Assembly (NCBI RefSeq): GCF_003334255.1
Contig: NZ_QOWU01000144.1
DNA from: Escherichia coli
Lineage (GTDB): Bacteria; Pseudomonadota; Gammaproteobacteria; Enterobacterales; Enterobacteriaceae
DNA length: 1,877 bases
Direction: 5' to 3' (one strand)
Shown: one piece after another, positions 1,510-1,877 of the stretch
Layout of the letters: every line of letters begins with the position of its first letter
Numbering within the stretch: position 1 is the first letter of the stretch
Notes under the pieces: generated by a model
The model's input: only the letters and a program-made list of their open reading frames with translations
Told to the model about the DNA's origin: nothing
Databases searched by the model: none
Made by a program: the position numbers and the translations under genes

Positions 1510-1877
1510 ATGGAATGGTTAAGTGAAATTCGTAAACTTCGGAAGAACGTACCTGTCGGTATCCAGGTTGCCAGACGTTTGTTAGAGAGGACTGGCGGTG
1601 ATGTTGATGAAGCCATCAAGTTGTTTCATATTGACCAAATCAATATATTGACGGCAAAAGCAGACGTCACTCATCAGGAAGCAGAGAATGTTTTGTTGGC
1701 TACAAACTATGATATTGCAGAAGCTCTTCGGCGTATTGATGAACAACGCTATACACTGACGGAATTGATTTTGCGTAAAAATAAGGATGCCGGAGATGCC
1801 GGTAATGACTCCAACTTATTGATAGTGTTTTATGTTCAGATAATGCCCGATGACTTTGTCATGCAGCTCCACCGATT
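1510..1877 (+). CDS. Hypothetical protein, 3'-truncated by the window edge (at least 122 aa). N-terminus is a tandem repeat of a ~30-aa EF-Ts-N / UBA-like helical module.
   Basis: The ATG at 1510..1512 is the first in-frame ATG after an in-frame stop at 1480..1482. It is preceded by AAAGGGG (1497..1503) with a 6-nt spacer. The frame stays open by manual translation to the window end: MEWLSEIRKLRKNVPVGIQVARRLLERTGGDVDEAIKLFHIDQINILTAKADVTHQEAENVLLATNYDIAEALRRIDEQRYTLTELILRKNKDAGDAGNDSNLLIVFYVQIMPDDFVMQLHR. It is absent from the ORF track, presumably because it has no stop in the window. Confidence 0.75.
   Translation, partial: MEWLSEIRKLRKNVPVGIQVARRLLERTGGDVDEAIKLFHIDQINILTAKADVTHQEAENVLLATNYDIAEALRRIDEQRYTLTELILRKNKDAGDAGNDSNLLIVFYVQIMPDDFVMQLHR

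Follow-up and report, generated by a model that had tools for sequence, protein, structure and literature searches.

A predicted two-part architecture for YfbN of Escherichia coli: a double UBA-like N-terminal unit joined to a DMP19-like helical domain

The stretch of DNA under study (the window: 1,877 bp, one strand, of contig NZ_QOWU01000144.1, E. coli assembly GCF_003334255.1) carries the 5' part of yfbN, one of the remaining y-genes of E. coli K-12 of unknown function. According to its predicted structure, YfbN is a soluble, all-helical protein in two parts, namely an N-terminal unit of two UBA-like modules with a long central helix in common, and an acidic C-terminal domain of DMP19-like fold. 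We hold this model-based structural description with high confidence. In the window itself, yfbN is a pseudogene that was cut by the insertion sequence (IS) IS1 after codon 97.

The N-terminal double UBA-like unit

A first-pass annotation of the window had reported that two segments of ~30 residues at the start of the gene align to each other. This was confirmed for residues 10–39 (nucleotides 1537–1626) and 47–76 (nucleotides 1648–1737). In the single sequence, 9 of 30 positions are identical, with a fixed-register ungapped BLOSUM62 score of 28 (shuffle p = 5e-5), and a free-register Smith–Waterman comparison of the two halves gave p = 0.0017. As BLASTP returned no alignment of the halves, profile methods were needed, for which an alignment of 102 family members (A1) was used. 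With hhalign, the profile of residues 1–42 matched that of residues 43–84 at a probability of 94.8% and a score of 30.3 over 36 columns, in the register first proposed (L10 with L47). The controls scored 9.7 (reversed segment), at most 13.2 (100 column shuffles) and ~9 (against the C-terminal domain). A chance likeness of amphipathic helices in a generic helical bundle, as the lack of a BLASTP alignment between the halves and of a Pfam match passing 0.001 for the E. coli sequence might suggest, is contradicted by the repeat and fold tests run and can practically be set aside.

The AlphaFold2 model calculated with the family alignment (predicted local distance difference test 96, predicted template modelling score 0.87) places helices at residues 4–13, 18–27, 32–51, 55–64 and 69–80, followed by ten more. 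The long helix 32–51 acts as third helix of the first module and as first helix of the second. In the model, residues 4–80 are thus a five-helix unit, composed of two UBA-fold three-helix modules with one common long central helix:

1519–1635, plus strand: UBA-like module 1, residues 4–42, helices 4–13, 18–27 and from 32 onwards (AlphaFold2), with a TS-N (EF-Ts N-terminus) flavour
1636–1749, plus strand: UBA-like module 2, residues 43–80, helices up to 51, 55–64 and 69–80 (AlphaFold2), with a Dcn1/FAM100B (UBA_4) flavour

The predicted structure shows the compact three-helix bundle of ~40 residues and the topology of a UBA domain. When compared with known structures, the unit was closest to the UBA domain of TNK1, followed by about 30 UBA, CUE and TS-N domains, including those of mitochondrial and bacterial EF-Ts.

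The sequence matches point in the same direction. Pfam aligned UBA_4 to residues 19–42 of E. coli YfbN (E 0.0032) and the HYPK UBA to residues 46–75 (E 1.4), with CUE at E 2.7; across the family, UBA_4 was matched by 1 of 102 members at E ≤ 0.001 and weakly by 31 of 102 at E ≤ 0.1. NCBIfam returned the UBA-type C-terminus of archaeal NAC at residues 42–76 (E 0.0016). When the family profile was compared with PDB sequences, nearly all matches were UBA-fold proteins (Dcn1, FAM100B, TNK1, NAC, p47, EF-Ts, Ede1, OTUD7A, TDP2 and Mex67). The profile matches are weak one by one, yet strikingly uniform in fold. PF00627 was matched neither by E. coli YfbN nor in the 102-member family.

In sequence comparison, the two modules differ in their closest relatives. 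The EF-Ts pattern given in the first-pass annotation is exactly residues 11–37 of E. coli EF-Ts, and the proposed likeness to the EF-Ts N-terminus was seen at profile level for module 1: its profile matched the EF-Ts pattern with an hhalign probability of 94.6% and a score of 31.0 (shuffled targets ≤11.8), spanning EF-Ts residues 7–45. The N-terminal profile also reached PDB entry 1efu_B at E 0.019, with residues 5–50 aligned to 6–51. Module 2 scored 27.3 against the Dcn1 UBA and 31.0 against FAM100B (94–96%), and more weakly, 22.5, against EF-Ts; its best PDB profile matches, of the Dcn1/FAM100B/p47 type, had E 0.002–0.004. Judged by these profiles, module 1 is closest to the TS-N domain of EF-Ts and module 2 to UBA-like domains of the Dcn1/FAM100B type.

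The details of the loops set limits to this likeness. Of the TS-N signature L-R-x-x-T-G-A-G-[ML]-M-D-C-K-K-A-L...G-D...A, YfbN has the spacing and the L, R, G, L, G-D and A positions and lacks T-G-A, MM and KK. R11, which is nearly invariant in module 1, occupies the position of EF-Ts R12. In canonical UBA domains, helices 1 and 2 are joined by a conserved M-G-[FY] loop that contacts Ile44 of ubiquitin; module 1 has x-P-[IV]-G instead, and module 2 no conserved loop. Pfam found no EF_TS match in YfbN, whose C-terminus is the DMP19-like helical domain and not an EF-Ts core domain.

The unit recurs outside the YfbN family. Foldseek matches 38–50 in the AlphaFold database (AFDB) were proteins of ~195–215 residues from Flavobacterium, Capnocytophaga, Acinetobacter and Myroides, in which the likeness is limited to the first ~75 residues (root-mean-square deviation 1.1–2.0 Å). 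Two such relatives from the HMMER search, one from Capnocytophaga sputigena (P0143, L013:1970-2587) and one from another Bacteroidota lineage (P0134, L014:1785-2465), are encoded in mixed small-gene arrays and combine the double module with unrelated C-termini that gave no Pfam match. Joined to unrelated C-termini in other proteins, the double UBA-like unit behaves as an independent N-terminal module. Bacterial UBA-like domains are already known from EF-Ts and NAC; to our knowledge, a TNK1-type double UBA with a shared helix has not been described in bacteria. The prediction would thus extend a tandem layout, so far described for a human kinase, to bacteria, where it appears as a modular N-terminal unit. 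Among the top 120 relatives listed in a search with P0143, all were at least 91% identical. The P0143 protein is also very abundant in oral metagenomes (694 clusters).

The C-terminal domain and the proposed function

The C-terminal domain (residues 83–235, ten helices in the AlphaFold2 model) is acidic and is connected to the double UBA-like unit by a conserved T-L-T-E linker. Foldseek aligned it with a stand-alone DUF4375 protein at E 6.8e-4, 24% identity and a template modelling score of 0.81, and the predicted structure displays the ten-helix all-alpha fold of DMP19. At the level of family models, the Pfam DMP19 hidden Markov model (PF14300) did not match E. coli YfbN at E ≤ 10 and weakly matched 3 of 102 family members at E ≤ 0.1, with a best value of 5.3e-3. 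The net charge of the domain is −12 (pI 4.9), and the family median is −6.5, both values referring to bulk charge. The polar and aromatic residues that are strongly conserved in YfbN, R11 excepted, cluster here (W116, E137, W138, Y141, E145 and G146). As a separate observation, the best, non-significant PDB sequence match of the C-terminal profile was CidA, the cytoplasmic-incompatibility antidote of Wolbachia (7fiv_A, E 0.32). CidA and residues 141–215 of YfbN (gene L001:7772-8488) both contain Y-x3-E-G-F-D-S-A, possibly by chance.

DMP19, an all-helical and acidic mimic of DNA, keeps a transcription factor and HU from binding to DNA (PMC3384305, PMC5722371). YfbN carries no catalytic or enzymatic signature, and we propose that it most likely works stoichiometrically, as a binding or decoy protein without enzymatic activity. 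The acidic DMP19-like domain would cover a basic, nucleic-acid-binding surface of a partner, with the nearly invariant patch of W116, W138, Y141 and E145 as probable contact site, and another protein–protein interface, which includes R11, would come from the double UBA-like unit. The gene would work as a stand-alone unit, outside any yfbO–yfbP system. Published work on yfbN describes regulation by SlyA/H-NS (PMC5797941), weak expression (PMC5797941, PMC9068703) and an increased yield of recombinant protein upon deletion of the gene (PMC7376861). Furthermore, a study of genes that block the retron-Sen2 toxin RcaT upon overexpression mentions yfbN in connection with these "blockers", and picked yfbO for its linkage to yfbN (bioRxiv 10.1101/2020.06.22.160242). 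These genetic data are consistent with an inhibitor-like binding role without pointing to any specific target. Taken as one statement, the architecture together with a binding or decoy role is slightly favoured by our analysis, while the specific decoy mechanism, argued by analogy, is a tentative suggestion.

Several observations weigh against this interpretation. On the structural side, the fold assignments come from a predicted, not a solved, structure, and no sequence-level match passes a curated threshold, UBA_4 standing at E 0.0032 for the E. coli protein. For the C-terminal domain, a HMMER profile of this part alone does not retrieve DMP19 (3vjz/3wur) at E ≤ 10, and the domain is therefore called DMP19-like by fold, not a demonstrated family member. 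Its net charge varies within the family from −16 to +8. The DNA-mimic or decoy mechanism would be an extrapolation from one characterised family member, at 12% identity, and the retron-blocker evidence is a mention in a figure legend of a screen and not a validated result for yfbN. Lastly, no partner gene is conserved nearby, so that genomic context provides no clue to the target.

Among the alternatives, an orphan immunity or antitoxin-type protein fares best, albeit as a possibility we regard as rather unlikely. YfbN would then neutralise a toxin by direct binding, which overlaps with the decoy idea, and would be kept in a variable islet with immunity-like yfbO, yfbP and yfbM. Its status as a low-GC accessory gene present in 980 of 5,426 genomes, its location among small unrelated genes, in islets or arrays, across several phyla, its naming among the RcaT blocker hits, the inhibitor nature of DMP19-like proteins and the non-significant CidA antidote match would all fit. 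However, no toxin gene (Rhs, contact-dependent inhibition, type VI secretion effector or toxin–antitoxin) was adjacent in any of 10 independent loci examined, neighbouring genes gave no Imm-family Pfam match, and the linkage to yfbO and yfbP is not conserved. Neither toxin adjacency nor a match to a known family placed YfbN among polymorphic-toxin immunity or defence components, and PADLOC matched none of YfbN, YfbO and YfbP. A Chryseobacterium array was considered as a poly-immunity locus, one of its genes having been guessed to be YrhB/Imm35-like, and was rejected: Pfam analysis of all neighbours identified NUDIX, alpha/beta-hydrolase, DUF1801, RibD_C, glyoxalase, NAGPA and DUF695/RraB families, and no immunity family.

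The TS-N flavour of module 1 raises a second alternative, in which this module is a functional TS-N domain and YfbN docks on EF-Tu, bringing the DMP19-like domain to the translation machinery as a regulator or toxin decoy. The positions in common with EF-Ts are mostly core and turn residues general to UBA-like folds, the "MM" and "KK" positions of EF-Ts are not conserved in the YfbN family, and YfbN lacks the EF-Ts core domains for nucleotide exchange; docking on EF-Tu appears unlikely. A wider version of this idea is improbable in our view. Here, the five-helix unit would be a mobile N-terminal adaptor of bacteria that has so far had no name, present in Enterobacterales, Acinetobacter and many Bacteroidota and combined with at least three unrelated C-terminal domains; via the TS-N-like module, it would tether these effector or decoy domains to EF-Tu or to some other abundant GTPase. 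If this were true, YfbN would be a translation-coupled DNA/RNA-mimic regulator or toxin decoy, and both the RcaT-blocker hit and the higher recombinant yield in the knockout would be explained.

A host-directed ubiquitin or NEDD8 binder working with the nearby deubiquitinase ElaD would match the UBA fold of the N-terminal unit, the polyubiquitin binding of TNK1 and the position of elaD (L001:12274-13062) four genes from yfbN in E. coli. This reading is highly improbable: members of the family occur widely in free-living Bacteroidota of soil and water (e.g., Chitinophaga and Hymenobacter), YfbN has neither a signal peptide nor a secretion signal, and in place of the M-G-[FY] loop, module 1 has P-[IV]-G and module 2 no motif. 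The proximity of elaD is probably coincidental, as neither of the orthologous loci, L003 and L008, carries the gene. A phage or anti-defence origin of YfbN was rejected on the basis of 0 tblastn matches in 50,697 phage records and no PADLOC match. PHROG contained no significant match (one weak match to a family of unknown function, E 0.028), and a structural search of BFVD returned nothing except a UBA-like domain of a giant virus.

Genomic context and IS1 boundaries

A total of 980 of 5,426 complete E. coli genomes carry yfbN, on the chromosome in every case; the gene belongs to the accessory genes of E. coli, is low in GC and was acquired horizontally. An exhaustive HMMER search yielded 134 family representatives at 50% identity, of which nearly all are collinear and 230–250 residues long. 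A search with a 7-sequence subfamily alignment returned two genome loci only, and a homologue search with the N-terminal profile returned E. coli fragments only. The family has no model in Pfam or NCBIfam, its AFDB relatives are all "uncharacterized", and no domain description of YfbN was found in the literature searched. Two full-length structural relatives in AFDB, A0AAD1F5Z9 and A0A0N0UYL3, bear the automatic names "Novel E3 ligase domain-containing protein" and "GntR C-terminal domain-containing protein", which are probably spurious helical-domain annotations.

The window corresponds to the yfbP–yfbO–yfbN segment of E. coli, which in intact genomes is flanked by nuoN and by yfbM/yfbL/yfbK/elaD. 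It is composed as follows:

1–77, no strand: terminus of an IS1 element situated left of the window, matching the end of annotated IS1 at 100% identity (L002 5710-5787)
78–823, minus strand: yfbP (TPR protein) without its last 34 codons, as annotated in L001/L002
879–1301, minus strand: yfbO, 140 residues, no recognisable family, as annotated
1302–1509, no strand: divergent intergenic region, AT-rich (31% GC), from sequence and composition
1510–1800, plus strand: 5' fragment of yfbN, codons 1–97 of 238, with 100% identity up to base 1800 when aligned to intact yfbN (WP_000455114.1)
1801–1877, no strand: terminus of a second IS1 copy, 100% identical to the IS1 end (L002 5019-5095)

The two IS1 termini (1–77 and 1801–1877) have the same orientation and match the two ends of annotated IS1 at 100%. 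They bracket a fragment of 1,723 bp (40.7% GC) in which both outer genes, yfbP and yfbN, are truncated. On the left, megablast matches to the native locus begin at base 77. Intact YfbP has 282 residues; due to the left IS1, the gene has lost its last 34 codons, and the open reading frame of the window ends in ...MSSET followed by 6 IS1-derived codons. On the right, the yfbN reading frame starts with ATG at 1510 (MEWLSEIRKLRKNVPVGIQVARRLLERTGGDVDEAIKLFHIDQINILTAKADVTHQEAENVLLATNYDIAEALRRI...), with a Shine–Dalgarno-like AAAGGGG 7–13 nucleotides upstream. Scans of the divergent intergenic region for promoters and terminators gave nothing above shuffled background. In a three-way alignment, the window tracks intact yfbN up to base 1800 (codon 97, ...KDAGDA) and continues into the IS1 inverted repeat, GGTAATGACTCC.... 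As bases 1801–1877 are IS1 read-through, the last 25 residues of the open reading frame (GNDSNLLIVFYVQIMPDDFVMQLHR) do not belong to YfbN. The fragment covers the entire double UBA-like unit, the linker and the first part of the C-terminal domain; cut after codon 97, the gene could yield no more than the double UBA-like unit. The first-pass annotation had placed the rest of the protein outside the window, which is incorrect, as IS1 cuts the gene at 1800/1801.

The exact two-IS1 configuration was absent from the 5,426 complete E. coli genomes searched, which hints at a lineage rich in IS1, for instance Shigella; genome matches reported as "100% covered" are IS1 pieces stitched from other insertions in the islet. 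The nuoN–elaD islet is an IS hot spot with insertion sites that differ among E. coli strains (L001, L002, L018 and L019): IS1 was found in yfbM, 3' of yfbN into yfbK and near codon 206 of yfbN; ISVsa5 interrupted yfbM or was located in the yfbO–yfbN intergenic region.

The first-pass annotation had further suggested that yfbN could be part of the same system as the divergent minus-strand pair. This was not borne out, as the three genes are not co-conserved across lineages. When YfbO, YfbP and YfbM were searched by tblastn in all fetched loci, YfbO was found in E. coli only, and YfbP in E. coli and one further enterobacterial lineage only, in a different arrangement. There, a yfbN orthologue of 47% identity is flanked by nuoN and by a downstream, convergent orthologue of yfbP (61% identity), without yfbO and yfbM. 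A 46%-identical orthologue (L008) stands alone between nuoN and an elaC-like gene, without yfbO and yfbP, and the Bacteroidota relatives (Chryseobacterium, Chitinophaga and Hymenobacter) are located among unrelated small genes, with neither yfbO nor yfbP. A functional tie of yfbN to yfbO–yfbP is not supported. Nor could the "immunity-type" character ascribed to the minus-strand pair be shown. In Pfam, YfbP matched TPR repeats only (residues 96–167, with TPR_16/TPR_14 at 105–167), and YfbO, which was matched by nothing in NCBIfam, PADLOC or, even at E 10, Pfam, looks like a true orphan. By eye alone, the N-terminal 90 residues of YfbP (GNGDCFGLYWP...PIVCETYHDEW...FSSIKKFEEWL) have the look of a SUKH/SMI1-KNR4-type immunity domain. 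Overall, the repeat noted in the initial reading was confirmed, and its interpretation was partly supported. In practical terms, yfbN in the window is a pseudogene disrupted by IS1, in a low-GC islet riddled with IS elements, and should not be read as part of an operon-level system with yfbO and yfbP.

Comparison with known systems

The closest structural parallel to the N-terminal unit of YfbN is the human TNK1 UBA (PDB 7tcy, 9nge), which is built from five helices, the third of them long and central, and contains two UBA-like motifs (PMC10312729), the same layout as predicted for YfbN. Sequence similarity between the two is marginal (E 0.07–0.09). The TNK1 domain is eukaryotic, is located at the C-terminus of a tyrosine kinase and binds polyubiquitin, whereas the unit of YfbN is bacterial, N-terminal and has no ubiquitin system to act on. 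Compared to the TS-N domain of EF-Ts (residues ~1–54; PDB 1efu_B), YfbN has two such modules, lacks the EF-Ts core and dimerisation domains and carries x-P-[IV]-G-[ILVM]-x in place of the TGAGMM signature. The best sequence-profile matches of module 2, Dcn1, FAM100B (UBALD) and p47 (UBA_4, PF14555), are eukaryotic proteins of the ubiquitin/NEDD8 pathway, and the YfbN matches to them fall below conventional significance.

For the C-terminal domain, the known counterpart is DMP19 of Neisseria meningitidis (NMB2123; PDB 3vjz/3wur; PF14300 DUF4375), with 12% identity to YfbN. DMP19 itself has no N-terminal double UBA-like unit, and it has partners of its own (NHTF and HU) as well as its own dimeric, DNA-like charge pattern. 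The predicted combination of a TNK1-type double UBA-like unit with a DMP19-like domain provides a concrete, testable starting point for YfbN.
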